36,177 bases of DNA from an uncultured Dehalococcoidaceae bacterium. Its GTDB lineage: Bacteria > Chloroflexota > Dehalococcoidia > Dehalococcoidales > RBG-16-60-22. The stretch spans positions 1-36,177 of the forward strand of contig CAYWRT010000006.1 in NCBI GenBank assembly GCA_964460815.1, in the 5' to 3' direction. How positions within the stretch are numbered: position 1 is the stretch's first letter; each line of letters opens with the position of its first letter. The notes below the pieces were generated by a model. It saw nothing but the letters and a program-made list of their open reading frames with translations, made no database searches and had not been told where the DNA came from. Positions 69 to 31,847 of this stretch are shown here, piece by piece. The translations under genes were made by a program, and so were the position numbers.

Positions 69-146
69 CGGGGCGTAGCGCAGCCTGGTTAGCGCGCCGC
101 GTTCGGGACGCGGAGGTCGGTGGTTCAAATCCACTCGCCCCGACCA
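69..146 (+). tRNA. tRNA-Pro(CGG)
   Basis: Acceptor stem CGGGGCG/CGCCCCG, anticodon arm CCGCG-TTCGGGA-CGCGG, T-loop GGTTCAAATCC, encoded 3' CCA. Confidence 0.97.
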
Positions 147-463: not shown

Positions 464-1702
464 TTGACACAAGTAATGATGAATAGCAGAGGCAAGGCCG
501 AGCTTCCGGATAGAGAGCATTTACCGCAGAGGGAAGACTCACAGTTAGGAGTCACCAACTGGCTCCTGCGGGCGAAAGCGACCACAGGTATTCGGAGCAT
601 TCATTTCTGGATTATCCTGGGCCTCTTTGCCATCTTTGCCTATATCTATTACGGCGTTTTGACCGCCTTTCACGATATTTATGTTATTCTTTTCTTTTAT
701 CCGTTGATTTATGCTGCTGTCATCTATCGCCTGCGAGGGGTGTTAATCAGCGGACTGGTTTTTCTTGCCGTCTTATTACCCTACGCCCTGCTTATTTCCT
801 ATGACATGCCATTACTAATAAGGTCACTAATCTTTGCTCTTTTTGCCTTTCTCATCAGTAGCCTGGGGGCGACTTTGTTAAACTACCTGGAGCATCAAAT
901 AGAAGCCTACGAGGAGATATTATCTCTTAATGAGGAGTTAAACGGCTATATCGAACGCCTGCAAAGCACTCAGAGGCAGCTTATCCAGGCAGAGAAGCTG
1001 AGCGCCATTGGCCAGCTAGCGGCAGCCGTGGCCCATGAACTCAACAACCCGCTGGCTGGCGTTCTGATATATACCAAGCTACTGATGAAGAAGATAGGCG
1101 ACGATTCCTTTGACAGGGAAGAAACGCTGGCTAACCTGTTAAAAATAGATACAGCAGTTAACCAGTGTTCGAGGATAATACGCGGCCTTCTTGATTTTGC
1201 CCGACAGTCCGAGCCCGCCTTAAAACCGGTAATAATAAGCAGCGTCATCGACCAGGTGATATCTCTGGTCGGTCACCAGGCTGTGATGAAGAAAGTGGCA
1301 GTAGCCAGAGAGGAAGCACCAGCACTGCCACCGGTTCTGGCTGACTTCAACCAGCTTCAGCAGGTGTTTATCAACCTTGCCGTGAATGCTATTCAGGCAA
1401 CCTCTGAGGGTGGCCGGCTGACTATCCGCAGCTCGCTGGGGGAGGATGGCCGGGTCAGGGTAAGCTTTCAGGATACCGGCTGTGGCATACCCCCCGAGAA
1501 TATAGATAAAATATTCACCCCCTTTTTCACCACTAAAGAAGAGGTAAAGGGGGTGGGCTTGGGGTTGTCCGTATCATACGGGATTATTGAGCGCCATGGC
1601 GGCAAGATTGAAGTACAGAGCGAGGTTGGCAAGGGAAGCACCTTTACCGTTTATCTCCCGGTTTATCAAGAAGGGTCACAGCCAACCTCAACACAGCTGT
1701 AA
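464..1702 (+). CDS. Membrane-bound sensor histidine kinase (about 4 TM + HisKA + HATPase); start uncertain (ATG at 476/479 possible)
   Basis: H-box AHELNNPL, N-box NLAVNAIQA, G1 DTGCGI, F box IFTPFFTTK, G2 GVGLGL; hydrophobic N-terminus. Confidence 0.93.
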   Translation: MTQVMMNSRGKAELPDREHLPQREDSQLGVTNWLLRAKATTGIRSIHFWIILGLFAIFAYIYYGVLTAFHDIYVILFFYPLIYAAVIYRLRGVLISGLVFLAVLLPYALLISYDMPLLIRSLIFALFAFLISSLGATLLNYLEHQIEAYEEILSLNEELNGYIERLQSTQRQLIQAEKLSAIGQLAAAVAHELNNPLAGVLIYTKLLMKKIGDDSFDREETLANLLKIDTAVNQCSRIIRGLLDFARQSEPALKPVIISSVIDQVISLVGHQAVMKKVAVAREEAPALPPVLADFNQLQQVFINLAVNAIQATSEGGRLTIRSSLGEDGRVRVSFQDTGCGIPPENIDKIFTPFFTTKEEVKGVGLGLSVSYGIIERHGGKIEVQSEVGKGSTFTVYLPVYQEGSQPTSTQL

Positions 1703-1740: not shown

Positions 1741-3030
1741 CTACCTGTTGAACGATACCTTTAAAACGTGCGCGGAGCATGATATACACGGGTCATAGGC
1801 CCTGACCAGCATCTCCAGAGTAAGTCTAATTTTATCCTCGGGTTGGCTCAGTATGGTGGGCACCAGAGCCTCCATGTCTTTCTGGATATTATTATGGTTC
1901 TGGTTGGTGGGAATGATACAGTTAGCCCTGGTCAGTATCCCATTATCATCATAGGTATAGTCATGGAAAAGGATACCGCGCGGAGCCTCTACGGCTCCGA
2001 TACCCCTCCCCGCCCGCACCTTTACCCTGCTATCCTCTTCCTCAAGACCTTTGTCCAGTATCCGGTCAATGAGATTAAGGCTATCCTCCAGGGCATGGAC
2101 ACATTCAATGATTTGAGCCACGGTTATCATGAAAGGATTATGGCAGGGTGCCCTCAGGCCAAGTTCCTCGGCAGCTTTCTGCGCCCCGGGCGATAGCTGG
2201 TCATGATTATTATTAAAGCGGGCCAGAGCCCCCACCATGTAGGCATCACGCTTGTTTTTAGTGTACTTGGCGGTGGAGTGGGGAACACAAAACTCATTGG
2301 TGACCTCCAGGTACTTATCCACAGGGGCGAGACCGGCGTCGGTTGAGGCAATCTGGCCGCTGATAAAGGCATACTCTCTGGTATCTTTCAGGGCGATATA
2401 TTCCGTTTCGCGCGTAAAATCGGGAATCTCCAGGGTCTTGAACAGCCCGACAACAGCATCCAGGTCAGCCAGGGCATCTTCCAGCCTCTTGCGGAGAGCT
2501 TCAAGCTCCCTTAGCTCGGGCAGCTTGGCAAAGCCGCCAACCACACAGGAGATGGGGTGGGTCTTCCTGCCTGCCAGCGCCTCAGCCAGATTATAGGCAA
2601 GCTTTTTCAGTCTCAGCGCCATCAGCACCGCATCTTTGTGCGTGGCTACCAGGGGAAAAACGCTACCGGCTCCCAGGAGGTCGGGTAACACCAGAAAAAG
2701 GACATGCAGGATATGGCTTTCCAAGATTTCGGCATTATAAAGCAGTTTCCGTAAAAGCAGCGTCTGCCGTGACGGCTGAATGCCAAAAGCAGCCTCGGTA
2801 GCCTGTATCGAGCAGGTAGAGTGAGAGATGGAACATATGCCACAGATTCTGGAGGCAATGTGGGGCACATCTTCACAGTACCTGCCCCGAAGCATAACCT
2901 CAAACAAGCGGGGTGATTCCGTAACCTCCCATAAGAGCTTCTCAATTTTGCCATCGGTGGCATTGAGCACGATATTACCATGTCCCTCCACCCGCGTCAG
3001 TTGATGCACATTCACATTGACTTCTGTCAC
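1741..3030 (-). CDS. [NiFe]-hydrogenase large (alpha) subunit, group 3b/sulfhydrogenase type
   Basis: TRVEGHG, L1 RICGICSISH, EAPRG, L2 RAYDPCISCSAH plus a short C-terminal extension. Confidence 0.95.
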   Translation of the reverse strand: MTEVNVNVHQLTRVEGHGNIVLNATDGKIEKLLWEVTESPRLFEVMLRGRYCEDVPHIASRICGICSISHSTCSIQATEAAFGIQPSRQTLLLRKLLYNAEILESHILHVLFLVLPDLLGAGSVFPLVATHKDAVLMALRLKKLAYNLAEALAGRKTHPISCVVGGFAKLPELRELEALRKRLEDALADLDAVVGLFKTLEIPDFTRETEYIALKDTREYAFISGQIASTDAGLAPVDKYLEVTNEFCVPHSTAKYTKNKRDAYMVGALARFNNNHDQLSPGAQKAAEELGLRAPCHNPFMITVAQIIECVHALEDSLNLIDRILDKGLEEEDSRVKVRAGRGIGAVEAPRGILFHDYTYDDNGILTRANCIIPTNQNHNNIQKDMEALVPTILSQPEDKIRLTLEMLVRAYDPCISCSAHVLKVSFNR

Positions 3031-3767
3031 TTGGTCACCTCCGCAAAGGTGTCATAAATTTTAAATTTCTCAACAACCTGGTCTACGGTCAGGCCGTACT
3101 TTTTAAGTATATCCTTCTCCGAATTTATGTTGGGTTCATCCACCAGGCCTCGGCAGCCCCAGCATATCCGCCCGCTATTGACACAGATAGCACCACAGCC
3201 GGCCCTGGTTACCGGGCCCAGGCAGGTCATGCCTCTTTCAAAAACGCAGACATTACCGGCCATCTTACACTCAACACAGACAGGATAGCCGGGTATATCC
3301 GGTTTCTTGTTCAGCAGGAGCGCCTTAACCACCTTGATAAGCTCGGCGGGCTGTGGCGGGCAGCCCCTTACATAGTAGTCTACGGTAACTACGGCGTTTG
3401 CCGGGCGGGCGGGAATGGTATCATAATATCTGGCATCCTCACCATAGACGGTACGCAGCGCCTCTTCCATGGGGACATGGTTCTTCAGGCAATTAATGCC
3501 GCCGATACAGGCACAGGCACCCAGGGCGACCAGGACCTTGGCCTGGTCGCGTATTTTTTGCAGCCGGCCTATCTCTGACTCCCGGCTGATACTGCCCTCA
3601 ATAAAGGCGATATCATAGTTATCGCTTCTCTCCGTCATCACTTCTCTGAAGTTGACAATGTCCACCGCAGCCAGCAGGTCCAGGAGTTGCTCACCATCAA
3701 GGTTAAGCGCATCCAGCTGGCATCCTTCACAGCCGGTAAAATCAAAGAACGCTACCCTAGGCTTCAT
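3027..3767 (-). CDS. [NiFe]-hydrogenase small (delta) subunit
   Basis: FTGCEGC, GACACIGG, RGCPP, VCVEC, CLGPVTRAGCGAIC, CWGCRG. Confidence 0.93.
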   Translation of the reverse strand: MKPRVAFFDFTGCEGCQLDALNLDGEQLLDLLAAVDIVNFREVMTERSDNYDIAFIEGSISRESEIGRLQKIRDQAKVLVALGACACIGGINCLKNHVPMEEALRTVYGEDARYYDTIPARPANAVVTVDYYVRGCPPQPAELIKVVKALLLNKKPDIPGYPVCVECKMAGNVCVFERGMTCLGPVTRAGCGAICVNSGRICWGCRGLVDEPNINSEKDILKKYGLTVDQVVEKFKIYDTFAEVTK

Positions 3768-6094
3768 CAGACTGCCTCCCTTAGATTTCTCAGTTGGGCA
3801 AGGTTAAATACCGGGCCCTCCTGGCATACATAGACACCGTTAATCTGGCAGTGGCCACACTTGCCGACGCCACACTTCATCCTTCGCTCCAGCGACATGA
3901 TGATGTTCTCATCGGGAAGGTCCCTTTTCTTGAGTTCCACGATGACGAACCGGTACATTATAGGCGGCCCGACCACCACCGCCACGGTCCTGTGGGGGTC
4001 AATTTCAACCTTGGGGATAAGGGTGGTAATAACACCTACATTCCCCTGCCAGCTCTCATTACCTTTATCCACCGTTTCGTGGAACTCGATGTCGGGGCTC
4101 TTGTTCCAGGCAGCCAGCTCATCCAGGAACAATCGCTCCGCCGGCGACCTGGCGCCGAAGAGCAGGATGGCCCGGCCAAAAGAGCTCCTGCGGTCAAGAA
4201 TATACTGAATCAATGAGCGCAGCGGGAAGAGACCGATGCCGCCGGCGACCAGCAGAATGTCCTTGCCCTCGAGAGACTCAAGTGGAAAGCCGTTGCCAAA
4301 CGGACCCCGTATGCCCACTTTGGTCCCTTCCTTGAGATGATGCAGGGCGTTGGTAACATCGCCGACATTTCTTATTGCCAGCTGAAAGGTACCGTCTCTG
4401 GTCGGTGACGATGAAATGGAAATGGGCGCCTCGCCGATGCCCATCACCGAGACCTCAACAAACTGTCCGGGGCGATGCCCCAGCTCCCTGCCATCCTCAA
4501 GACGGAACTCAAAGACCTTCTCATTGGGTGTCAATTCGCTGACCTTTACCAGCGCCGCGGGGCAGGGAGCGTATAATTCAGTCTCCGGCTTTACCTCGCT
4601 GACAATACGCTTGGCGGCTTCTTTAATCCCGGCTGACTCAGCTATGGAGTTGAAAGCCTCCAGGGGACTGGCTATCTCCGCCAGGCAGGCGATGGCACAC
4701 CGACCACAGCCCACGCAGCCGACCCTCCCGTATCTTTCCAGAACATATTTACCCTTGCGAAATATCCGGTGCCGGAAACGGCTCTCTTTGTTATGGCGGA
4801 AATTCTCACCGGTAGCTACCTTGGCGAAGTCAACCAGCATACAGCCGTCCCAGCGGCGGAGGCGCTCTCCCTCTCTCAGGTTCAGCGCCACTTCATCGGT
4901 GACATCAAAGCAGAAACAGGTGGGGCACACCATGACGCAGGAGCCGCAACTGAGGCAGGTTTCACTCCTGGATGCCCAGTACGGGTCATCGTAGTTGTCC
5001 TCCAGCAGCTTGGGCAGCCTTTCTCTGGCCACGTCAAGAGAGAGCTGATACCTGGCCAGCGCCCCGTCCCTGGCCTGCTTCTGCCTGGCGATATCATCGC
5101 TGGTCGGTTCGCCTGCCGATGCATACTTTGCGAGGAGTACAGCACCCATTTCTGAACCAACTGTTACCATATAGGCAGTGCCAATATCCGTCAGCAGGAG
5201 GTCAAAGCCCGTTTCCGCCGTGTTCGTCCCCATGCTGGGGGCAAAGGATTTGGGGGATGGGTTAAGACAGTCAACCCCGATGATAACGGTGTTTTGCCGC
5301 CGGGCGATGTAATTGGGGTCAGGGTTGGCCGCCATGAAGACCTCGTCCAGCAACTCGATGGCCTTAATATCATAGGGGTGCACACCGATTACAGCCAACG
5401 GGGCGGCTTCAACTACCGGCTCAGCCTTTGACTCGTCTCCAATTTTGAATTTAAGCAGGTTCTCTCTGGCGGGCAGGAGGTACTTGGTCGGCGGCATAAC
5501 GGTAACATCATAATCAAGACGGAGCTCATCAAAGCTGTCTATCCTGTCGTAAACATATTTCCCATGCCTGGATTTGACGCCGACTATTTCCATCTCCTTA
5601 CTGAGGCTGTTTACCATAGCCTTCAGATTCTCCCTGGTAATAACGAATAACCTCTTGACCGCAGCGGCTTCTACTACCGGCGGCTTGGGTGGCGCGGCTG
5701 CCCTGGCTTTAACCGTCGGTTCCTCGCCTACTGAATCGAGAGTCTCCCGGATAAGCTTTTCCAGGTCGTCGGGGGCAACCGGCTTAACCAGGTAATCAAT
5801 GGCACCAAGCTGCCTCGCCTCGCTCGTGGTTTCATCGGAGGGGTAGGCAGTTATGATAATTGACTTTATCCACGGTCTTTGTGCTTTTACTTCCTTCAGT
5901 ACGGCTATCCCGGTTTGCCCCGGCAAACGTATATCCAAGACCATAACGCTGAAGTCCTGTTTTTCTATCACCTCAAGGGCTTCTTCTCCGGTCTCAGCCG
6001 TGGCCACCTGGTAGCCGGCATCTTTGAGCCAGTCCCTTATGGACTCGCGCACAATTGCCTCATCATCCACAACCAGTACCGAGTTTCTTATCAT
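3767..6094 (-). CDS. Fusion of a response-regulator receiver domain, sulfhydrogenase beta (4Fe-4S, AsrA-like) and gamma (FAD/NAD(P), 2Fe-2S, AsrB-like) subunits
   Basis: aa1-119 REC (D10 D11, D54, T82, K104-P); Pro/Ala linker; CLSCGSCVMVCPTCFC and CVGCGRCAIAC; RPGQFV, GPFGNGF, VAGGIG, CGVGKCGHC..C; single open frame. Confidence 0.92.
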   Translation of the reverse strand: MIRNSVLVVDDEAIVRESIRDWLKDAGYQVATAETGEEALEVIEKQDFSVMVLDIRLPGQTGIAVLKEVKAQRPWIKSIIITAYPSDETTSEARQLGAIDYLVKPVAPDDLEKLIRETLDSVGEEPTVKARAAAPPKPPVVEAAAVKRLFVITRENLKAMVNSLSKEMEIVGVKSRHGKYVYDRIDSFDELRLDYDVTVMPPTKYLLPARENLLKFKIGDESKAEPVVEAAPLAVIGVHPYDIKAIELLDEVFMAANPDPNYIARRQNTVIIGVDCLNPSPKSFAPSMGTNTAETGFDLLLTDIGTAYMVTVGSEMGAVLLAKYASAGEPTSDDIARQKQARDGALARYQLSLDVARERLPKLLEDNYDDPYWASRSETCLSCGSCVMVCPTCFCFDVTDEVALNLREGERLRRWDGCMLVDFAKVATGENFRHNKESRFRHRIFRKGKYVLERYGRVGCVGCGRCAIACLAEIASPLEAFNSIAESAGIKEAAKRIVSEVKPETELYAPCPAALVKVSELTPNEKVFEFRLEDGRELGHRPGQFVEVSVMGIGEAPISISSSPTRDGTFQLAIRNVGDVTNALHHLKEGTKVGIRGPFGNGFPLESLEGKDILLVAGGIGLFPLRSLIQYILDRRSSFGRAILLFGARSPAERLFLDELAAWNKSPDIEFHETVDKGNESWQGNVGVITTLIPKVEIDPHRTVAVVVGPPIMYRFVIVELKKRDLPDENIIMSLERRMKCGVGKCGHCQINGVYVCQEGPVFNLAQLRNLREAV

Positions 6095-6107: not shown

Positions 6108-6485
6108 TTATTCTTCGTCGCATTTCAGAAGGGTTTCCCGGATGAGTCTTTCCAGGTCATCAGGAGCAATTGGCTTGATTAGGTAATCAATAGCGCCAAG
6201 CTGCCTCGCCTCATCTGACAATTCTGTCGATGGGTAAGCCGTGATAATAATGGACTTTATCTCTGGCTTGAGAACTTTCACCTGCTTCAGTACCGTCATG
6301 CCGGTTTGCCCGGGCAGCCTTATATCCATGACGATAACACTGAAGTCCTGCTTCTTTATCATCTCCAAGGCTTCCTCCCCGGTCTCAGCCGTGGCCACCT
6401 GGTAGCCGGCATCTTTGAGCCAGTCCCTTATCGAATCCCGCACAATCGGTTCATCATCAACAATCAATATTGGCTTTCTGCTCAT
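6108..6485 (-). CDS. Stand-alone CheY-like response regulator
   Basis: ILIVDDE, VMDIRLPG, ITAY, LIKP; no output domain. Confidence 0.93.
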   Translation of the reverse strand: MSRKPILIVDDEPIVRDSIRDWLKDAGYQVATAETGEEALEMIKKQDFSVIVMDIRLPGQTGMTVLKQVKVLKPEIKSIIITAYPSTELSDEARQLGAIDYLIKPIAPDDLERLIRETLLKCDEE

Positions 6486-6613: not shown

Positions 6614-6656
6614 TAGTAACTAAAGTTACTATATACCCCTGATGAACGAATGTCAA
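6614..6656 (-). promoter_or_regulatory. Promoter of the REC/hydrogenase operon with an overlapping palindromic operator candidate
   Basis: Minus strand TTGACA-N17-TATAGT (6656-6628); palindrome TAGTAAC-TAAA-GTTACTA at 6614-6631. Confidence 0.6.
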
Positions 6657-8922: not shown

Positions 8923-10275
8923 ATGCCGACCAGGACACCACAGGATATCTGGGAAACTGCCTTGGGTGAACTGCAACTCCAGGTGAGTAAGCCAAACTAC
9001 CGAACCTGGTTTGGCAAAACCACCGGTTTAAGTTATCAAGATAATCAATTTATTATCGGTGTACCCAGCACCTTTGTTGCGGAATATCTGGAGAAGAATC
9101 AGCGTTCCCTGATTGAAAAGGCGCTTATCGGTCTCACCTCTCCTGGCGTAAAGGTAGGTTTCCAGGTCAATGGCCAGACTCACCATGGCCCTTACGATAC
9201 CGGGCCCAGTATCCCAGCAGCCGCGCCCTCATATACCAGATTGAACCCGAACTATGTCTTTGATTCCTTCATCGAAGGCAGCAGCAACCGCCTCGCCCGT
9301 GCTGCCGCTCTGGCCGTAGCCCAGAATCCGGGACATAGCTACAATCCCCTGTTTATATACGGCGGTGCCGGTCTGGGTAAGACCCACCTGCTACATGCTA
9401 TCGGTAGCGTGGCGCTCACCAGACATATCAATGTGATTTGTACCAGCGCCGAGCAGTTTACCAATGAGTTCGTCAGTGCCCTGCGCGAGAAGAGCACCGA
9501 GGAATTCCGTAATAAATACAGAAGCATCGGCATGCTGCTCATTGATGATATCCACTTTATCAGCGGCAAGGAGCAGACCGAGGAAAGCTTCTTCCACACC
9601 TTCAATGAGCTGCACAATTCCAACCGCCAGATTGTTATCACCAGCGACTGCCCACCTAAATCAATGCCCTTGCTCGAAGAAAGACTTTGCTCCCGGTTTG
9701 AATGGGGATTAATTGTTGATTTGCAGCCGCCCGATTCTGAAACACGCCTGGCTATTCTCCAATCAAAGGCACAACAGAGAGGTGTGAGCATAGGTCTGGA
9801 TGTGCTGGAGTTTATTGCCCAACGGGCTCAGCGGAACATCCGGGAACTGGAAGGCTCATTGAACCGGGTAGTTGCCTTCGCTAAGCTAAGCCGGACGATA
9901 CCTACCCTTGACCTAGCCAAGAAAGCACTTGAGGATATCGCCGGCAAAGAGGAGGGCTTAGATTCTATAACACCTTTCTATATCATCGAGTCCGTTGCCA
10001 GCAGCTTTCGGCTGTCCGTGGAAGATTTAAAGGGCCGGAAAAGAGAAAAGGAAACCGCTTTAGCCCGTCGTTTAGCCATGTACCTGGTCCGGCAGGAAAC
10101 CAATTGTTCGCTGTCACAAATCGGCCAGGAACTCGGTAACCGTGATGCCGCCGCGGTTACCATCGCCTGTAAAAAAGTATCTACCGATATCACCAGCAGC
10201 CCCTACTTAAAGAGAAAAATCAGGGAAATTCAACAGAGTATACGCCCCAGGGTAAAATTTCGTAAATCCCGCTAG
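8923..10275 (+). CDS. dnaA: Chromosomal replication initiator DnaA
   Basis: YNPLFIYGGAGLGKTHLL, LLIDDIHF, EESFFHTFN, SRFEWGL, NIRELEG, domain IV HTH. Confidence 0.98.
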   Translation: MPTRTPQDIWETALGELQLQVSKPNYRTWFGKTTGLSYQDNQFIIGVPSTFVAEYLEKNQRSLIEKALIGLTSPGVKVGFQVNGQTHHGPYDTGPSIPAAAPSYTRLNPNYVFDSFIEGSSNRLARAAALAVAQNPGHSYNPLFIYGGAGLGKTHLLHAIGSVALTRHINVICTSAEQFTNEFVSALREKSTEEFRNKYRSIGMLLIDDIHFISGKEQTEESFFHTFNELHNSNRQIVITSDCPPKSMPLLEERLCSRFEWGLIVDLQPPDSETRLAILQSKAQQRGVSIGLDVLEFIAQRAQRNIRELEGSLNRVVAFAKLSRTIPTLDLAKKALEDIAGKEEGLDSITPFYIIESVASSFRLSVEDLKGRKREKETALARRLAMYLVRQETNCSLSQIGQELGNRDAAAVTIACKKVSTDITSSPYLKRKIREIQQSIRPRVKFRKSR

Positions 10276-20659: not shown

Positions 20660-21736
20660 TTGAGGAATAAAAGAATATTCATTATCGTCGCCGGGCTCAT
20701 TTTCGGGGCTCTGGGGGCGCTGATGGTCAACTGGGGCAACCCCGCCAACATGGGCATCTGCGTTGCCTGCTTTATCCGCGATATCGCCGGCGCCATCGGC
20801 ATCCATCGGGCCGCAGTGGTGCAGTATCTCCGGCCGGAAATCATGGGGTTTGTTCTGGGCGCTTTCGTTACCTCCTTCGCTTTCCGCGAGTTCCGTGCCC
20901 GGGGCGGTGCCTCTCCTATAATCCGCTTTCTCATGGGCGCCTTTGTCATGATTGGTGCCCTGGTGTTTCTGGGCTGCCCGATACGGATGATGCTGCGCAT
21001 CGCCGGCGGCGACCTCAACGGGATTACGGCTCTTATTGGCCTGGTGGCGGGGGCACTGGCGGGCATTTTCTTTCTGAAGAGGGGCTTTAACTTCGGGCGC
21101 GCTACCCGAATGCACCCGCTGGTGGGCTGGATGATGCCCCTGATGATGGTGGGGCTGCTCCTTTTTGCCATCTTCAAGCCGGGCTTTATCTTTGCCAGCG
21201 AATCGGGGCCGGGGGCCGCTTTCGCCCCGCTGGCGGTGGCTATTGTGGTCGGGCTGGTGGTCGGCTTTCTGGCACAGAGGACCCGCATGTGCTTTGTTGG
21301 TGCCTGGCGCGACATATTCCTGGTCAGGGATACCTATCTCATAAGCGGCGTGGCGGCTTTCTTTATCGCCGCCCTGATTACCAACTACGCTGTCGGCAAC
21401 TTCGGCGCCGGGGGCATATACCACTGGGGCTTTGCCGACCAGCCGGTAGCCCCTACCGACCACCTCTGGAATTTCCTGGGCATGGCTTTAGTAGGCCTGG
21501 CGGCCACCCTGATTGGCGGCTGCCCGCTGCGTAACTGTATTCTCTCCGGTGAGGGCGATACCGATGCCGGCATGACCGTTCTGGGTTACTTCGCCGGCGC
21601 CGCCTTTGCCCATAACTTCCTGCTGGCCTCCAGCCCCAGCGGCACGGGTGCCTGGGGCCCGGTGGCGGTTATCATCGGGCTGGTCTTCTGTCTGGCGATT
21701 GGCTTTATAATGATGGAGAGGGCAAGAAGTAGCTAG
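20660..21736 (+). CDS. yedE: YedE/YeeE-family putative selenium transporter
   Basis: GNPANMGICVACFIRD, FLGCP, QRTRMCF, GGCP; multi-TM; selD context. Confidence 0.9.
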   Translation: MRNKRIFIIVAGLIFGALGALMVNWGNPANMGICVACFIRDIAGAIGIHRAAVVQYLRPEIMGFVLGAFVTSFAFREFRARGGASPIIRFLMGAFVMIGALVFLGCPIRMMLRIAGGDLNGITALIGLVAGALAGIFFLKRGFNFGRATRMHPLVGWMMPLMMVGLLLFAIFKPGFIFASESGPGAAFAPLAVAIVVGLVVGFLAQRTRMCFVGAWRDIFLVRDTYLISGVAAFFIAALITNYAVGNFGAGGIYHWGFADQPVAPTDHLWNFLGMALVGLAATLIGGCPLRNCILSGEGDTDAGMTVLGYFAGAAFAHNFLLASSPSGTGAWGPVAVIIGLVFCLAIGFIMMERARSS

Positions 21737-21747
21737 AGGGAATAAAC

Positions 21748-22287
21748 ATGGCGTTTCTGAAGCGTAAAAAGGCGGCTTTTGAGGGCGCGGGCCTGGTTCT
21801 CTTCAACGAGGTATCGGACGCGATGCAGGCAGAAAAAACTTTGAAGAGGGCAGGCTATCAGGTAAAGCTGGTGGCGCCGCCGCCCGAGCTGCGCAAGGGC
21901 TGTGACCTGGCCGTGGCCATAAACCTGGTGGAGAAGCTCGGTATTGAGCGGATACTCCGGCAGAGCGACGTCGCCTATGTTGAGGTAGCGCCGCTCAGAA
22001 TAGATACCTCGGAGATACTGGAGATTGTCAGGGTGACTGACTTCGGCGACTGGGTGATGGTCAAGGCGGCCAACATGAAGCTAACCTTTGAGAAGAAGAG
22101 CGGGGTCATCGTCAACACCTCCGGTGGCGGCTGCCCTGATATCCCTTACCTGCATGCTGAGCTGATTGATAAACCGCTTGGCGAGGCGCCGCGCCCCGGT
22201 GAACTCGGCTTTACTCTTTGCGCCCTGATGCTGGAAAGGGCCCTTGAGGAGAGCCTGGCTCTCTATAAGGGGGGTGAGATGCCATGA
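21748..22287 (+). CDS. DUF3343-like (selenium-associated) protein
   Basis: AMQAEKTL..LVAPPPELRKGCDLA N-terminal motif; C-terminal SGGGCPDIP..TLC. Confidence 0.75.
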   Translation: MAFLKRKKAAFEGAGLVLFNEVSDAMQAEKTLKRAGYQVKLVAPPPELRKGCDLAVAINLVEKLGIERILRQSDVAYVEVAPLRIDTSEILEIVRVTDFGDWVMVKAANMKLTFEKKSGVIVNTSGGGCPDIPYLHAELIDKPLGEAPRPGELGFTLCALMLERALEESLALYKGGEMP

Positions 22288-23183
22288 TGCTTATTGCCGG
22301 TACTGTCCCCATCGCGGACATGCCCCTGACCCTGGGGGAGGTGAGTGCCGAGGGTGATTTTCTGCTGGTTGACGGGCGGTGTGTCCCCTGCACCCAGGGC
22401 ACCGGTGCCATGGTCAGCGCCGCCCTGGCGACCACTGACTACCTGAAGCTGGAAGCACCGCAGGTGCTTTTAGCCGGCGACACTGGACAGGGTAAGGGCA
22501 GCCGTAAGCTTTATGAGTATTTAATCAGGAATATAGCTGAGCTGGCACCGCAGGTGCTGGCGCTGCATTACTGGCTCCCGAATATAGTTCAGACGAGGCA
22601 ACTGTGTGACGCCATTAAAGAGTGTGCCCGCCGGCCGGTAATGATTGCCGATGCCGCCTCGATGTATTCCGCCAAGGCAACCGGGCTGGCTGGCGACTTT
22701 GATATTTTTACCCCGGATGCTACCGAGATGGCGTTTCTGGCCGACCCCGCCGCCACCCACCCGGCCTATGTCCAGAGGCACCTGATTGACACCGATATCA
22801 AACGGACGCCCGAGCTTATCAAGACCGCTTATCGGAACGGGAGTGCCGCCCGGCTGCTGCTGGTGAAGGGTGCCGTTGACTACATAGTCAGTAATGGCGA
22901 GATTTTGGCTACCGTGAGTGAGCCCGATGTGCCGGTGATGGAGGCCATCGGCGGCACCGGTGACACCATTACCGGTCTGGTCTCGGCTCTGGTCTACGCC
23001 GGCCTGGAGCCTCATGAGGCGGCCATTATCGCTGCCCGCGCCAACCGCATGGCGGGAAAGTTTGCTCAAGCCACTCCGGCCACCAGAGTCAGGCAGGTTA
23101 TTGCCCAGTTTCCGGCTGTTTTCCGGGAGTACCTGTGTCAATGGAGTGGCGTTTGCTATACGCAGGGAGTAAAATATGACTGA
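22284..23183 (+). CDS. Ribokinase/carbohydrate-kinase-fold protein (YjeF-C-like), function unknown
   Basis: IADA, FTPDATE, LLVKG, AIGGTGDTITG anion-hole motif. Confidence 0.75.
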   Translation: MMLIAGTVPIADMPLTLGEVSAEGDFLLVDGRCVPCTQGTGAMVSAALATTDYLKLEAPQVLLAGDTGQGKGSRKLYEYLIRNIAELAPQVLALHYWLPNIVQTRQLCDAIKECARRPVMIADAASMYSAKATGLAGDFDIFTPDATEMAFLADPAATHPAYVQRHLIDTDIKRTPELIKTAYRNGSAARLLLVKGAVDYIVSNGEILATVSEPDVPVMEAIGGTGDTITGLVSALVYAGLEPHEAAIIAARANRMAGKFAQATPATRVRQVIAQFPAVFREYLCQWSGVCYTQGVKYD

Positions 23184-23394
23184 AGTTGATGTCCGGGGCT
23201 TTTCCTGCCCCATACCGGTGGTCAAGACCAAGAAAGCGATGGAAGATAATCCAAAAGATGTGCTGACGGTGCTGGTGGAAACCGAGGTCTCCAAGGAGAA
23301 CGTCTCCCGGCTGGCACAGAGCCGGGGGTATTCGGTCAGGGAGGAAGCGGTATCCGGCGAGTACCGGCTCACGCTGACACCACCGGGTAAATAG
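23176..23394 (+). CDS. TusA/SirA/YedF-like sulfur or selenium carrier
   Basis: VDVRGFSCPIPVVKTKKA. Confidence 0.9.
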   Translation: MTEVDVRGFSCPIPVVKTKKAMEDNPKDVLTVLVETEVSKENVSRLAQSRGYSVREEAVSGEYRLTLTPPGK

Positions 23395-23414
23395 AATACT
23401 GGAGGGGCGAGTAG

Positions 23415-24464
23415 ATGGGTGATGAGGCAAGACCGCGTCTCACCGAGACCGTTCATGGTTCCGGTTGAGCTTGTAAGATGGGTCCGGGAGACCTTGCCCA
23501 GGCGCTGGCTGGCCTGCCACTTATATCCGACCCGAATCTCATAGTGGGTATAGAGCGGGCTGAGGATGCCGGTGTCTACAAGCTGACCGATGAGCTGGCT
23601 ATCGTTCAGACGCTTGATTTCTTCACGCCGATAGTAGATGACCCCTATGCCTTCGGTCAGATTGCCGTCGCCAATGCGCTGAGCGATGTCTATGCCATGG
23701 GTGGCCAGCCCCTGACGGCGATGAATATTGTCTGCTTCCCGCAGAAGAAGATGGACATATCTATACTGAGGGATATCCTGGCCGGGGGTCTGGAAAAGAT
23801 GCATGAGGCGGGGGTAATACTGGTGGGCGGGCACAGCGTTGAGGATGACGAGTTGAAGTACGGGATATCGGTCACCGGCACCATCCACCCGGCTAAGGTC
23901 GTCCTCAACACCGGTGCCAGGGCTGGCGACCGGCTGGTTCTGACCAAGCCACTGGGCACGGGCATAATAAGCACGGCGATTAAGGGCGGTATGGCTGGTG
24001 AAGGGGCGGTCGCCAAAATCACCAGGTCCATGTCCACCTTAAACCTGAAGGCATCGGAGCTGATGCAGGCCACCGGTGTTAATGCCTGCACTGATGTTAC
24101 CGGCTTTGGCCTGCTCGGCCATGCCGCCGAGATGATTGAGGGGACCGATGTGGGCATGGTGATAGACTCGACGGCGGTGCCGTTCTTCCCTGAGGCGAGG
24201 GAGTTTGCCGTGATGGGCATGATTCCCGCTGGACTCTACCGCAACCGCGAGTTCCGTAAAAATATGGTTGAGGTGGCTCAGGAGGTTCCCCAGTATCTGG
24301 CCGATATCCTCTTTGACCCCCAGACCTCGGGGGGCCTGCTGATTTCGGTGCCGGAACACAAGGCATCAAGGCTGCTGGGGAGGCTGCATAAAGCCGGCAT
24401 CAGTGAGGCGGCCATCATCGGTGAGGTGGTTAGTGAGCCCAAGGGCAGGATTATCATCCGTTAA
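23415..24464 (+). CDS. selD: Selenide,water dikinase, selenoprotein form (UGA=Sec at codon 18)
   Basis: SD GGAGG then ATG 23415, in frame MGDEARPRLTETVHGSG-U-ACKMGPGDL; TGA at 23466-68; DFFTPIVDDP, NALSDVYAMGG, DVTGFGLLGH, DPQTSGGLL. Confidence 0.95.
23469..23503 (+). promoter_or_regulatory. Bacterial SECIS-like hairpin
   Basis: GCTTG..GGTC-CGGGA-GACC..CAGGC; G-containing apical loop begins 16 nt after the UGA. Confidence 0.7.
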
Positions 24465-28928: not shown

Positions 28929-29452
28929 CATTTCATAAATTTTGGCCGATACGGGAGAACCAGAAGGGCTTTACTTTGCTTGAGCTGTTAGTAGCCCTAG
29001 CCATTACCAGCTTTATTAGCGTCGGGGTAGCCATGGCCACCGTGCAGGTGGTTGACCAGGGGGGCCGGAACAGTGACTATAACACTGCCAGCCGGAACAC
29101 GCTGAATGCCATCCACTGGATTAGCCGTGATGCCCAGATGGCTCAAACCCTGGAACCGGGTGGTTCATCGGGCTTTCCCCTCAACCTGAGCTGGGTTGAG
29201 TGGGATAACACCGTTCACCAGGTTACCTATGCTGAGGATGGGGACAGGCTGAGGCGGAGCTACTCTATTATTGGTGGTGGGGCACCAAATGTGACTCTGG
29301 TGGCTCAGTACATTAACTGGGTATCGGAGAATACCACCTGTGATTTCAGTGACGGTATTCTTGAATTGACAGTGACCACCACTGTCGGCACTGGCTTAAA
29401 CGCAGTCAGCGTAACCAGAACGCATGATATTGCCCCCCGCCCCGGATTGTGA
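28925..29452 (+). CDS. Type IV minor pilin (PilW/PulJ-like)
   Basis: QKG/FTLLELLVALAI, WISRDAQMA. Confidence 0.88.
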   Translation: MTFHKFWPIRENQKGFTLLELLVALAITSFISVGVAMATVQVVDQGGRNSDYNTASRNTLNAIHWISRDAQMAQTLEPGGSSGFPLNLSWVEWDNTVHQVTYAEDGDRLRRSYSIIGGGAPNVTLVAQYINWVSENTTCDFSDGILELTVTTTVGTGLNAVSVTRTHDIAPRPGL

Positions 29453-29456
29453 AGAG

Positions 29457-31847
29457 ATGGTTAACAGGATAAAGACTAACCTAGTTAAATATGTTAAACG
29501 TTTAAATGAGGAGAAAGGGCAGGCTCTAATGTCGGTCCTTGCCTTCCTGCTCATAAGCAGTCTGACCCTGCCACCTATCCTATCTCACATGCGCACGTCG
29601 CTTCAAACAGGGAAGGTGTATGAGGATAAGACAGACCAGCTGTATGCGGCTGATTCGGGGATTGAAGACGCCCTCTGGCAGATAAAGTATGACCGGCTGG
29701 AGCCGTTGTTCACTAACCCGGCTTATAACATCTATGACTTCGGTACGACCTGGTCATACCGTCTAAACGACCCGATAAATAACCTCACGGCTAACGTAAG
29801 TATCCGGAACGTCTGGATTCCGAGCAACGTATCGCCGCCATCAGACGCGGTTGAAGCCAGGGAAATCATTGAGTCAAACAAGCTGATGGTAGCCGGCACG
29901 GCTACTGACGAATCAAACTACAAGATAAAGATAAGCTTCAGTCCCGGTGAGGGTGAGGAGGAGGCTTTGATGGTCGAGTCGCTGGGAATATGGCTGCCGC
30001 TCGGTTTCCACTACAGCGGCTCCTGCACCCTGGCAACCGTACCTGGTGCGCAATACTACTCGGAAGATGTTACGGATTATGCCGGCGGCGAGTCCGTGGT
30101 CTGGGAATTCACCCCCTCTATTGCTTTCACGTCCTTCGGGGCTGACCCCGGGGAAATGCCGATGATAGCCGAGATTAGCTTTCAATATACCGCCGATGAG
30201 GCGGGAGCCGAACCGGCGACCGTTTCTTGGATAGAGACCTACGGCGCTATTACTGATATCCTCCCCGTTACCTGGGATATTGACACCAGGATTTACACAA
30301 TTACCTCGGTTGCCGGTGATACCGAGATTGATGCCTACTCGTCCAAATGCGAATTGCGCAAGATGGGTGACGCCATTGCCGGTGACTACTGTGCCATCGG
30401 CAACTCTCTGATGAGAGATATTAATCATGACAACTACCGGGAAACCTGGCTTTCCGAGAGCAGTACCGAGGTCGATACTATTCCCAATGATGCGGAAGAG
30501 GGTTTCGCCGACGTGATTCAGGCCCATCTTTACTGGTCAGGGTGGCGGAATGAGAGCAGAAAGCAAACGGAGCTTTCTGAATCCTGCAGTAACTTTGACA
30601 GGTGGATTGACGGCAGTAGCTGGGATATTGGTAGTAATTACTTTCAGGGCCATTACAGCAGCTCGGGAGAAGACCCTCGCTGTCTCACCCTGAAAAGTGA
30701 GTATAGCCTGGACCTGAGTTCTTACGCTGATATGGGAGCAGTAACGGTCTCCTGGGAACAGTGGGAGACTGGAAACCTGGAGTCTGGCGATGGACTTGAC
30801 TTTGCTTTTTCCCCCGATGGCGGTAATACCTGGAGCAGTTACATTGAAGCCTTCCGCGGTAATATCGGTAGTTCACGGCAGGATTTTTGCTACGTTATCC
30901 CCTCCGATATAATCCCCTCCACTTATTTGACTGATGACTTCAAGCTGAAGTTTTACCTGGTCGGTTTTGCCGAATCCGACGACAATTATTGCCGTATAGA
31001 TAATATTCAAGTCAAGTCAATGATGCCAGACTACGACGCCGTCTTCAAGATAGATGACAATCAGGTCTATCTGGATAATGGAGAGGCTGCGCAGGGTCCC
31101 GTAGACATAGTCGCCACAAGAACACAGGTCTTACCCAATTATGACAGTAGTGGTAACCCCAATGGCTTTTCCTACTCCTGTTACCTGGATGTCACCAAGC
31201 TTGTAAAAGCGTATGGTGAAGTGGTCGAGGATGAATACGGCATTGAACACCATACCGGCAACGAGAACTACACCGCCGGGGATGTGGTTGCCGATACCGG
31301 CAACATGTGGTCTTACGCTGGCTGGTCTCTGATAATTATTTACTCCAGTCCGGAGACGGCGGGGCATCAGCTTTATCTCTGGGACGACTTTATGTACGCC
31401 GATGAGGACACGAATATCGACTTCGACGGCGATGGCGTTGATGGCGGCGACATAACCGGTTTTGTCGTTCCGGAGCAAATCGAGGGCATACCAAATGCGG
31501 CCAAGCTGACCTGCTTCGTGGGCGAGGGCGATACTTATACCGGTGACAAACTGAAGTTTACCGGTCAGTCGGGGTACAGTGAGTACCTTGAAAATGACGA
31601 AAGTCCCTGGAGTAATGTCTGGAACTCACAGTCGCCGGGTTTTGACTATGACGGTGTTGACATTGACACCTTTGACGTTCCCTGGAAGAATTCTTATAAC
31701 CAGAATCTGGTAGAGCCGGGTGATACTTCAGCACACTTAGACCTTCCCACCGGGCAGGATAGCTGGAATCTGGTGTATATAATTCTATCCATGCAGAGCC
31801 TGACCGTTACCGGCGGTACCGTGCACTACGTTATACAATATGGCTAG
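29457..31847 (+). CDS. Large PilX-like pilin with acidic beta-rich adhesin-like domains; start uncertain (ATG 29457 assumed)
   Basis: KG/QALMSVL without E5, YAADSGIEDA (PilX-N like), long D/E/Y/W-rich C-terminus. Confidence 0.8.
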   Translation: MVNRIKTNLVKYVKRLNEEKGQALMSVLAFLLISSLTLPPILSHMRTSLQTGKVYEDKTDQLYAADSGIEDALWQIKYDRLEPLFTNPAYNIYDFGTTWSYRLNDPINNLTANVSIRNVWIPSNVSPPSDAVEAREIIESNKLMVAGTATDESNYKIKISFSPGEGEEEALMVESLGIWLPLGFHYSGSCTLATVPGAQYYSEDVTDYAGGESVVWEFTPSIAFTSFGADPGEMPMIAEISFQYTADEAGAEPATVSWIETYGAITDILPVTWDIDTRIYTITSVAGDTEIDAYSSKCELRKMGDAIAGDYCAIGNSLMRDINHDNYRETWLSESSTEVDTIPNDAEEGFADVIQAHLYWSGWRNESRKQTELSESCSNFDRWIDGSSWDIGSNYFQGHYSSSGEDPRCLTLKSEYSLDLSSYADMGAVTVSWEQWETGNLESGDGLDFAFSPDGGNTWSSYIEAFRGNIGSSRQDFCYVIPSDIIPSTYLTDDFKLKFYLVGFAESDDNYCRIDNIQVKSMMPDYDAVFKIDDNQVYLDNGEAAQGPVDIVATRTQVLPNYDSSGNPNGFSYSCYLDVTKLVKAYGEVVEDEYGIEHHTGNENYTAGDVVADTGNMWSYAGWSLIIIYSSPETAGHQLYLWDDFMYADEDTNIDFDGDGVDGGDITGFVVPEQIEGIPNAAKLTCFVGEGDTYTGDKLKFTGQSGYSEYLENDESPWSNVWNSQSPGFDYDGVDIDTFDVPWKNSYNQNLVEPGDTSAHLDLPTGQDSWNLVYIILSMQSLTVTGGTVHYVIQYG

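Follow-up and report, generated by a model that had tools for sequence, protein, structure and literature searches.

Organization of the locus

The window analyzed here, the whole stretch of 36,177 nucleotides (nt) of contig CAYWRT010000006.1 (assembly GCA_964460815.1) from an uncultured Dehalococcoidaceae bacterium, carries a gene whose predicted product joins a response-regulator receiver domain (REC) to the beta and gamma subunits of a [NiFe]-hydrogenase. This fusion of 775 amino acids (aa) is read from a single frame at window 3767..6094, on the minus strand only; the plus strand there is rich in stop codons. The open reading frame (ORF) starts with ATG and is preceded by GGAGG, which lies inside the 13-nt spacer downstream of a stand-alone (solo) REC gene. 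The initial annotation had described the frame as receiver, linker, beta and gamma, and Pfam and NCBIfam bear this out. The Pro/Ala linker that it had named is present as well, at about residues 122-147 and with low conservation and low model confidence, and D10, D11, D54, T82 and K104 of the receiver lie where it had placed them. The parts of the fusion are:

5732..6094, minus strand: receiver of the fusion, aa 1-121, with the D54 codon at 5933-5935 (Pfam, pocket residues, modeled (beta-alpha)5 fold)
5654..5731, minus strand: Pro/Ala-rich tether, aa 122-147 (low conservation, low predicted local distance difference test score, pLDDT)
4661..5653, minus strand: beta part, HydB/ShyB/AsrA-like, aa 148-478, with Fer4_22 (Pfam, NCBIfam, 9nez_B, invariant cysteines)
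4580..4660, minus strand: beta-gamma joint, aa 479-505, a helix in the model (conservation profile and AlphaFold2)
3767..4579, minus strand: gamma part, HydG/ShyC/AsrB-like, aa 506-775 and stop codon, with FAD, NAD(P) and [2Fe-2S] domains (Pfam, NCBIfam, 9nez_C)

Along the chain, Pfam recognizes Response_reg (residues 6-115, E 1.5e-29), Fer4_22 (379-474, E 5e-31), FAD_binding_6 (513-601, E 3e-09), NAD_binding_1 (615-717, E 4.2e-11) and the [2Fe-2S] domain DHODB_Fe-S_bind (736-768, E 2.3e-10). The beta part (151-475) aligns with the NCBIfam models ShyB (1.9e-64) and HydB (1.3e-61), and the gamma part (503-771) with the hydrogenase gamma model PRK08345 (7.5e-83) and also with AsrB, ShyC and HydG (7.5e-83 to 3.3e-63); the NCBIfam scores of all hydrogenase parts lie below the curated equivalog cut-offs. 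In the PDB, the top matches are the gamma and beta subunits of sulfhydrogenase 1 (9nez_C, 7e-61; 9nez_B, 1.8e-52). An alignment of 57 sequences leaves the beta cysteines C380, C383, C386, C390, C393, C395, C418, C460, C463, C466 and C470 invariant, together with C741, C746, C749, C757 and G619/G621 of gamma. The tether (about residues 122-147, EEPTVKARAAAPPKPPVVEAAAVK) is the segment of lowest conservation, with a mean column identity of 0.53 versus 0.78 for REC and 0.75-0.88 for beta and gamma; the receiver is conserved as strongly as the catalytic parts. By this domain evidence, the gene is predicted to encode the part of a cytoplasmic group-3b-type [NiFe]-hydrogenase that transfers electrons on the NAD(P)H side, with a receiver held at its N-terminus by a flexible tether of ~25 residues.

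The AlphaFold2 model, computed on the same 57-sequence alignment, has a mean pLDDT of 75.0 and a predicted template modeling score (pTM) of 0.41. It gives a standard (beta-alpha)5 receiver at residues 1-121 (block pLDDT 77-90), a disordered stretch at residues 124-146 (pLDDT < 50) and a confident gamma part; confidence is low near the metal-cluster loops. A docking prediction of REC (1-125) on beta-gamma (148-775) returned interface scores (ipSAE) of 0.01 and 0.00 (mark 0.32), and weighs neither way.

The fusion in assemblies and in other genomes

A misassembly, frameshift or gene-calling error as the source of the fusion is virtually inconceivable. The contig is of metagenome type, from a genome that is 75.6% complete in 201 contigs, and in three runs public contigs end inside both copies of a 53-nt exact repeat shared by the two receiver genes, at 6011-6017 and 6402-6408. 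This repeat could, however, at most swap the first ~27 codons between the receivers, and it cannot create the fusion. The REC-beta junction (5647-5752) is crossed with 0-2 differences by contigs of three of the four sequencing runs (X1, 3771-6017; X2, 5085-6017; X3, 5353-5791), the fourth run holding only pieces of ~150 nt; these bridging contigs rule out misassembly, which the initial annotation had asked to be excluded. The window stretch occurs in salt-marsh metagenome runs.

Nor is the fusion a singleton, which the initial annotation had set as the finding that would count against it. Among the best 120 of 1432 database matches (67-100% identical, 711-798 aa), which come from several sources, 119 combine PF00072 with the beta and gamma domains, and the exception, P0084, is short at its N-terminus. 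We also collected 42 loci from one-genome-per-species contigs (L-numbered below): 20 encode REC-beta-gamma, 3 beta-gamma without REC, and 16 separate beta and gamma genes; one is cut by a contig end and two hold unrelated receivers. Of 401 Dehalococcoidia genomes sampled, 11 have the full-length, uninterrupted fusion, namely that of the window, G340 and nine of one genus; 2 further ones have fragments of it. That genus, of the window's order, has the fusion in 9/9 genomes, most of them single-contig and of 1.7-2.1 Mb.

The hydrogenase encoded by the operon

The fusion is the second gene of a tightly packed operon on the minus strand, in the order solo REC, REC-beta-gamma, delta and alpha, and a histidine kinase gene converges on its end.

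6628..6656, minus strand: sigma-70-like candidate promoter, TTGACA-17-TATAGT (11/12), ~143 nt upstream of the solo REC start (consensus scan only)
6108..6485, minus strand: stand-alone receiver, 125 aa, first operon gene, paralogue of the fused REC (Pfam Response_reg, 5.9e-31)
6379..6431 (solo REC) and 5988..6040 (fused REC), minus strand: 53-nt exact repeat in the alpha-1/beta-2 coding region (sequence comparison)
3027..3767, minus strand: delta small subunit, 246 aa, its start overlapping the fusion stop by 1 nt (Oxidored_q6, 4.2e-25; HydD, 3.2e-56)
1741..3030, minus strand: alpha large subunit, 429 aa, with a 4-nt overlap with delta (NiFeSe_Hases; RICGIC and DPCISCSAH)
464..1702, plus strand: histidine kinase, 412 aa, convergent with the operon and 38 nt from the alpha end (HisKA with H191, HATPase_c)

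The large subunit has the nickel-iron ligand motifs expected of group 3b, RxCGxC near the N-terminus and DPCxxCxxH near the C-terminus, and its nearest profiles are of that group (ShyA 1.5e-82 and HydA 4.4e-77 vs VhuA 1.5e-43 and FrhA 5.6e-41), with scores below the equivalog cut-offs; an 8-residue tail follows DPCISCSAH. Delta carries the small-subunit cysteines, and delta, an Fe-S beta and an FAD/NAD(P)/[2Fe-2S] gamma are encoded together, as in group 3b. With all four Ni-Fe cysteines, the cluster ligands and the FAD/NAD motifs in place in alpha, delta and beta-gamma, the encoded enzyme looks catalytically complete. It departs from the group in its chains: the characterized enzymes have four separate subunits, whereas here beta and gamma are fused and REC is attached. 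The initial annotation had held that characterized group 3b enzymes have separate subunits and no receiver, and this agrees with 9nez/9nf0, in which beta and gamma are separate chains and no receiver was matched.

Sulfhydrogenase 1 (PDB 9nez/9nf0; HydB, HydG, HydD, HydA) and sulfhydrogenase 2 (ShyBCDA) have the same four parts in the same order beta, gamma, delta, alpha; every part of the window's enzyme finds its best NCBIfam and PDB matches among them, and the Ni-Fe, Fe-S, FAD and NAD(P) motifs are common to both. Unlike them, the window's locus encodes beta and gamma as one chain with an N-terminal receiver and tether, and it includes a solo receiver and a kinase. At scores below the equivalog cut-offs, the window's enzyme is best placed as a distant bacterial relative of the sulfhydrogenases.

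Group 2b regulatory hydrogenases have a large subunit without a C-terminal extension and work with a PAS-kinase. Assignment of the window's enzyme to this group was rejected on its best matches, which are of group 3b, and on the 8-residue tail; no 2b model was among the matches, in a library that may hold none.

The receiver pocket and its twin

All pocket residues of the fused REC are present (D10, D11, D54, T82, Y101, K104 and P105). In sum, the domain has the Pfam match, the acidic pair, the acceptor Asp, the Thr/Tyr switch, the Lys and the modeled fold of the receiver family. Among 140 fused homologues, D54 is kept in 138, K104 in 138, T82 in 137, Y101 in 135, D10 in 128 and D11 in 127, and the D-D-D-T-K set is complete in the window, L001, L003-L008 and L020 (L007 has C at position 101). 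The pocket is best kept exactly where a solo REC and a kinase occur, the exception being one subclade of the fused forms (subclade B), in which the kinase is present and the acidic pair is altered.

The solo REC has the same pocket (D10, D11, D54, T82, Y101 and K104) and is identical to the fused REC at 96/125 residues (77%). The two are identical throughout residues 18-41 (alpha-1, beta-2 and alpha-2), and the differences are concentrated in alpha-3 and the start of alpha-4. The alpha-1 helix of receivers carries most of their kinase specificity. The DNA of the two genes is 76% identical; 35 of the codon differences are synonymous and 29 non-synonymous, and the 53-nt identical run suggests a local conversion patch in the window. 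Recent gene conversion as the sole cause of this likeness is ruled out in general by the synonymous differences in other genomes: in six of them, the pair is 66-79% identical with 33-47 such differences. Because these are so many, the pair is best seen as old, kept similar, and subject to occasional conversion patches. The gene immediately before the fusion is a solo REC in the window as well as in L001, L003, L004, L005, L006 and L020.

The neighboring kinase and its relatives

Residues 45-142 of the window kinase form about four membrane helices, after which come H191, within an HExxNP box, and a complete ATPase domain. Like the two receivers, the kinase core is a small and soluble domain. 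A convergent kinase follows directly past alpha in the window, L001, L003, L005, L006 and L020 (a fragment in the last). Counting the closest loci with a downstream flank, 6/7 have a kinase after alpha, and L049, the exception, has neither a kinase nor a solo REC. The core of the window kinase is 59% identical to that of the L001 kinase and 54% to that of L009, whereas the best paralogue in the window's genome reaches 40%; it is of one lineage with the L001/L009 kinases, with the sensor exchanged for membrane helices.

Those kinases are larger. In L001 and in subclade B (62-64% identical: L009, L011, L012, L014, L016, L018 and L024), kinases of ~650 aa adjoin the operon. By Pfam, the L001 (11418-13370, minus strand) and L009 (2132-4081, plus strand) kinases have two 4Fe-4S motifs, Fe_hyd_lg_C (4e-47 and 3e-51), a C-terminal Fe-S motif, HisKA and HATPase_c, and the kinases of L011, L012, L014, L016, L018 and L024 share this [FeFe] H-domain layout by similarity. 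The classification table of HydDB says of the putative [FeFe] group C1 that it "may sense H2 ... via histidine kinases". The L001/L009-type kinases thus have the layout of putative [FeFe] C1 H2 sensors, beside an obvious target operon. The window kinase was considered as such a sensor and rejected, as its chain holds only HisKA and HATPase_c; the window's genome, at 75.6% completeness, gave no PF02906 match.

Subclade B adds an NtrC-type regulator (REC, sigma-54 activator and HTH_8) between kinase and operon, and in 8/8 loci having that gene a TGGCA-N6-TTGCA site of sigma-54 type follows it by ~20 nt.

L009:5441, L010:776, L011:5453, L013:349, L015:683, L016:3043, L018:5470 and L024:4072: sigma-54-type sites (motif scan)

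L012, L014, subclade A and the window all lack such a site, and REC-beta-gamma is the sole receiver gene beside the sensor kinase in the first two. No sigma-54 site precedes the window's operon by motif scan, and Pfam detects no DNA-binding regulator in its locus. Two observations stand apart: L009 has a 138-aa Cys-rich ORF (5514-5930) between the sigma-54 site and the fusion, and L051 (G128:C5, 4886-7415) is a decayed copy of the locus, made up of a solo REC, one fragment each of beta and alpha, and a kinase split in two frames.

Gain and loss of the receiver

We built a quick IQ-TREE phylogeny of beta and gamma with 41 rows. L021, L023, L024 and L026 were omitted for their shortness, L041 and L042 because they are unrelated, and L043-L046 and L051 because they come from the genome of the window itself or are a remnant. 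The fused forms, 23 with REC and 3 lacking it, all make one clade, with an approximate likelihood-ratio (SH-aLRT) support of 99; its sister consists of Chloroflexota operons with separate genes. The REC-less L019, L022 and L047 are nested inside the REC clade, and the well-supported branches force at least two changes. Because of this nesting, the REC-less forms are best read as secondary losses. Neither a dedicated kinase nor a solo REC was found in the flanks of L019, L022 and L047.

A receiver that may act on the enzyme itself

The best reading of the locus is direct control of the enzyme by phosphorylation, to which we give an even chance; anatomy, conservation and synteny are seen directly, and both the phosphorylation and its effect are what we infer here. 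The support for this reading is circumstantial and comes from the intact and conserved pocket, the adjacent kinase, the lack of a DNA-binding regulator in the locus, and the REC-less relatives, which also have no such kinase nearby. The shared alpha-1 helix of the two receivers, the likeness of the kinase core to those of L001 and L009, the arrangement in L012 and L014, and the recurrence of receivers with this diaphorase speak for it as well. On this reading, the membrane kinase (464-1702) would phosphorylate D54 of both receivers, and the phosphorylated fused REC would alter the activity or the oligomeric state of the enzyme through its alpha4-beta5-alpha5 face. The route could be REC dimerization, with itself or with the solo receiver, or a contact with beta-gamma that is made or released. 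H2/NAD(P)H exchange would then be switched within seconds rather than through transcription. A plausible purpose would be that of a check valve, which prevents the drain of NAD(P)H to H2, or the reverse, when this near-equilibrium reaction flips direction. The solo receiver would most likely share the kinase and might be a partner, a competitor or a phosphate sink. A wider proposal, which we rate slightly short of even, is that a phosphorelay ends on the hydrogenase itself and switches H2/NAD(P)H exchange post-translationally, with the twin receiver balancing it, and that in sister lineages an [FeFe]-like H2-sensor kinase supplies the signal and also drives a sigma-54 promoter, so that an H2 circuit would act at two levels of control.

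Several observations weigh against direct phosphorylation control. The window kinase has no sensor domain recognizable by Pfam, and its pairing with the receivers is proposed from position and similarity only. AlphaFold2 sets REC in no confident relation to the remainder of the protein (pTM 0.41), and there is no RNA run among the public runs that contain the window stretch. The pocket itself is altered beyond the window's subclade: ten subclade-B sequences have E10/S11 despite their retained sensor kinase (L018 also has T82A), L048 and L050, of the genus with complete genomes, have D10/S11, L017 has both D11N and D54N, and L049 has K104R. Three lineages dropped REC yet kept the operon. These last two points together argue that phosphorylation control is not essential to the enzyme, and phosphorylation may not be the only role of REC. 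In addition, a match at E 1e-40 is absent from three genomes of the window's family, and the closest relatives (80-82% identical) belong to a family of the same class, not of the same order; the distribution is therefore patchy and transfer of the operon within the class is likely.

The degenerate pockets (E/S, D/S, D54N, K104R) and the three losses of REC with retention of the operon are also what would be expected if the receiver were mainly a structural or assembly domain, acting in dimerization or docking independently of phosphorylation. The genus with the fusion in 9/9 genomes adds to this, as the flanks of 2 of its loci show no kinase or solo REC. Such a role is nonetheless unlikely for the window's protein: the acceptor residues and the Y101/T82 switch are intact in its subclade, counted as the window and 7 loci whose N-terminus can be read, including L001 and L003-L008 (apart from the C at 101 in L007), the gene has a conserved kinase and twin receiver next to it, and D54 is kept in nearly all homologues.

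Receivers on other redox proteins

We searched for the same architecture more widely. Among the best 150 of 1.84 billion 50%-identity representatives, P0122 alone (773 aa, 68% identical) spans residues 3-775, and many of the 150 are REC-less beta-gamma fusions (39-60% identical). Ten representatives were analyzed by Pfam. Six are REC-beta proteins without gamma (P0133, P0135, P0146, P0148, P0160 and P0183); P0137 (740 aa) and P0140 (746 aa), both metagenomic, have REC and histidine-kinase domains ahead of a beta-type Fer4_22 in one chain; the remaining two have other architectures. A common origin of the receivers in these other-cluster REC-beta fusions was considered and found unsupported, as they are 28-45% identical to the fused REC of the window, no nearer than ordinary receivers.

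The single-chain arrangement of P0137 and P0140, which is sensor-like, bears on a further explanation, in which the hydrogenase module is the input: the redox state of the beta-gamma clusters and flavin would report the levels of H2 and NAD(P)H and set the uptake or loss of phosphate by the fused REC, and the fused REC would be a sink that tunes the solo receiver, the true messenger. A solo receiver with an identical alpha-1 would compete for the same kinase, and the locus has no DNA-binding output; both fit this scheme. We hold it to be distinctly improbable, however, since the enzyme looks fully catalytic in its Ni-Fe cysteines, cluster ligands and FAD/NAD motifs, the H2-sensing role in the relatives is already taken by the [FeFe]-hydrogenase-like kinase, and the solo receiver has no known target. 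An N-terminal receiver followed by a C-terminal effector is the usual layout of response regulators, and the order of REC and enzyme in the fusion fits that layout as well. Direct action of the receiver on the enzyme remains our preferred reading.

Receivers stand beside or on other redox proteins too. Four loci labeled Myxococcota or Bdellovibrio have an unrelated solo REC directly before beta. L001 (4615-6366) and L051 (7474-9225) encode a 583-aa Pyr_redox_2/Pyr_redox_dim flavoprotein whose C-terminus is a REC, 51% identical to that of the fusion. Its gene immediately precedes the solo REC, and a search of the window's genome turned up no orthologue. In two Atlas clusters, of 51 and 102 members and chiefly from Nitrospirota, a receiver occurs together with a HoxE/NuoE-type 2Fe-2S domain, with a feature score of 0.83 that makes them a lead only. 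These proteins put a receiver on another hydrogenase/NADH-dehydrogenase diaphorase subunit, of ~290-310 aa and with an unrelated redox domain (PF01257). Taken together, receivers attached to redox subunits look like a recurring solution. The initial annotation had not mentioned the twin solo receiver upstream, the kinase, or the receivers that occur with or beside such diaphorases in other, uncharacterized lineages.

Comparison with known regulators

CheB methylesterase and GGDEF-type PleD are response regulators with enzymatic outputs (in part by the PIRSF text). Like them, the fusion starts with a receiver that has a full pocket and ends in an enzyme, with a flexible linker in between, and the logic that they share is likely to be relief of inhibition or dimerization driven by phosphorylation. 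Unlike them, its output is not a signaling enzyme and is instead a redox subunit, with several cofactors, of a hetero-oligomeric metalloenzyme; the literature searched describes no response regulator with such an output.

The H2 sensors listed in the HydDB table ([NiFe] 2b and putative [FeFe] C1) act via histidine kinases toward gene expression. The window's system has in common with them a tie between two-component signaling and hydrogen metabolism, and the kinases of relatives (L001, L009 and others) have a C1-like H-domain. It differs in that its receiver sits on a subunit of the catalytic enzyme itself, and in that its kinase has membrane helices, not an H-domain. To our knowledge, the regulation of hydrogenases works through transcription, through maturation, and through inactivation by redox changes or O2. 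A receiver on a hydrogenase subunit is described nowhere in the literature searched, outside which most subscription journals and supplements lie.

The design brings together two known kinds of protein, a hydrogenase of group-3b type and a response regulator, the latter with an output that is new. New for this locus are a pocket that is intact, a twin receiver of 77% identity bearing a conversion patch, a kinase whose sensor has been swapped, the pattern of losses and the sigma-54 sites of the relatives. Dehalococcoidia are major players in anoxic carbon and halogen cycling, and the design is common in those of sediment and subsurface. If the preferred reading is true, the built-in receiver would be a new and fast level of control over the balance of H2 and NAD(P)H, and response regulators would gain a new class of output.

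Surroundings of the operon

Upstream of the operon lie mazG, fmt and dnaA, and the rest of the window consists of housekeeping genes. As dnaA (8923-10275, plus strand) is only 2.4 kb away from the operon, the replication origin is probably close to the locus. A tRNA-Pro (CGG) is encoded at the contig end (window 69-146, plus strand), and for an 807-aa ORF (window 29424-31847, plus strand) Pfam gives no family match at E 1e-5.

At G000:C87:1654-3532 there is another beta/gamma-like pair, separate from the first and 33% and 46% identical, with no delta or alpha genes after it in the stretch examined. Window 20660-24464 holds a possible selenium-handling cluster (Sulf_transp, Se_S_carrier and an AIRS/SelD-like gene), and another contig (G000:C117:3000-4268) encodes a second cytoplasmic-type [NiFe] large subunit with an in-frame TGA; the selenium-type cluster and the in-frame TGA may point to a selenocysteine hydrogenase.

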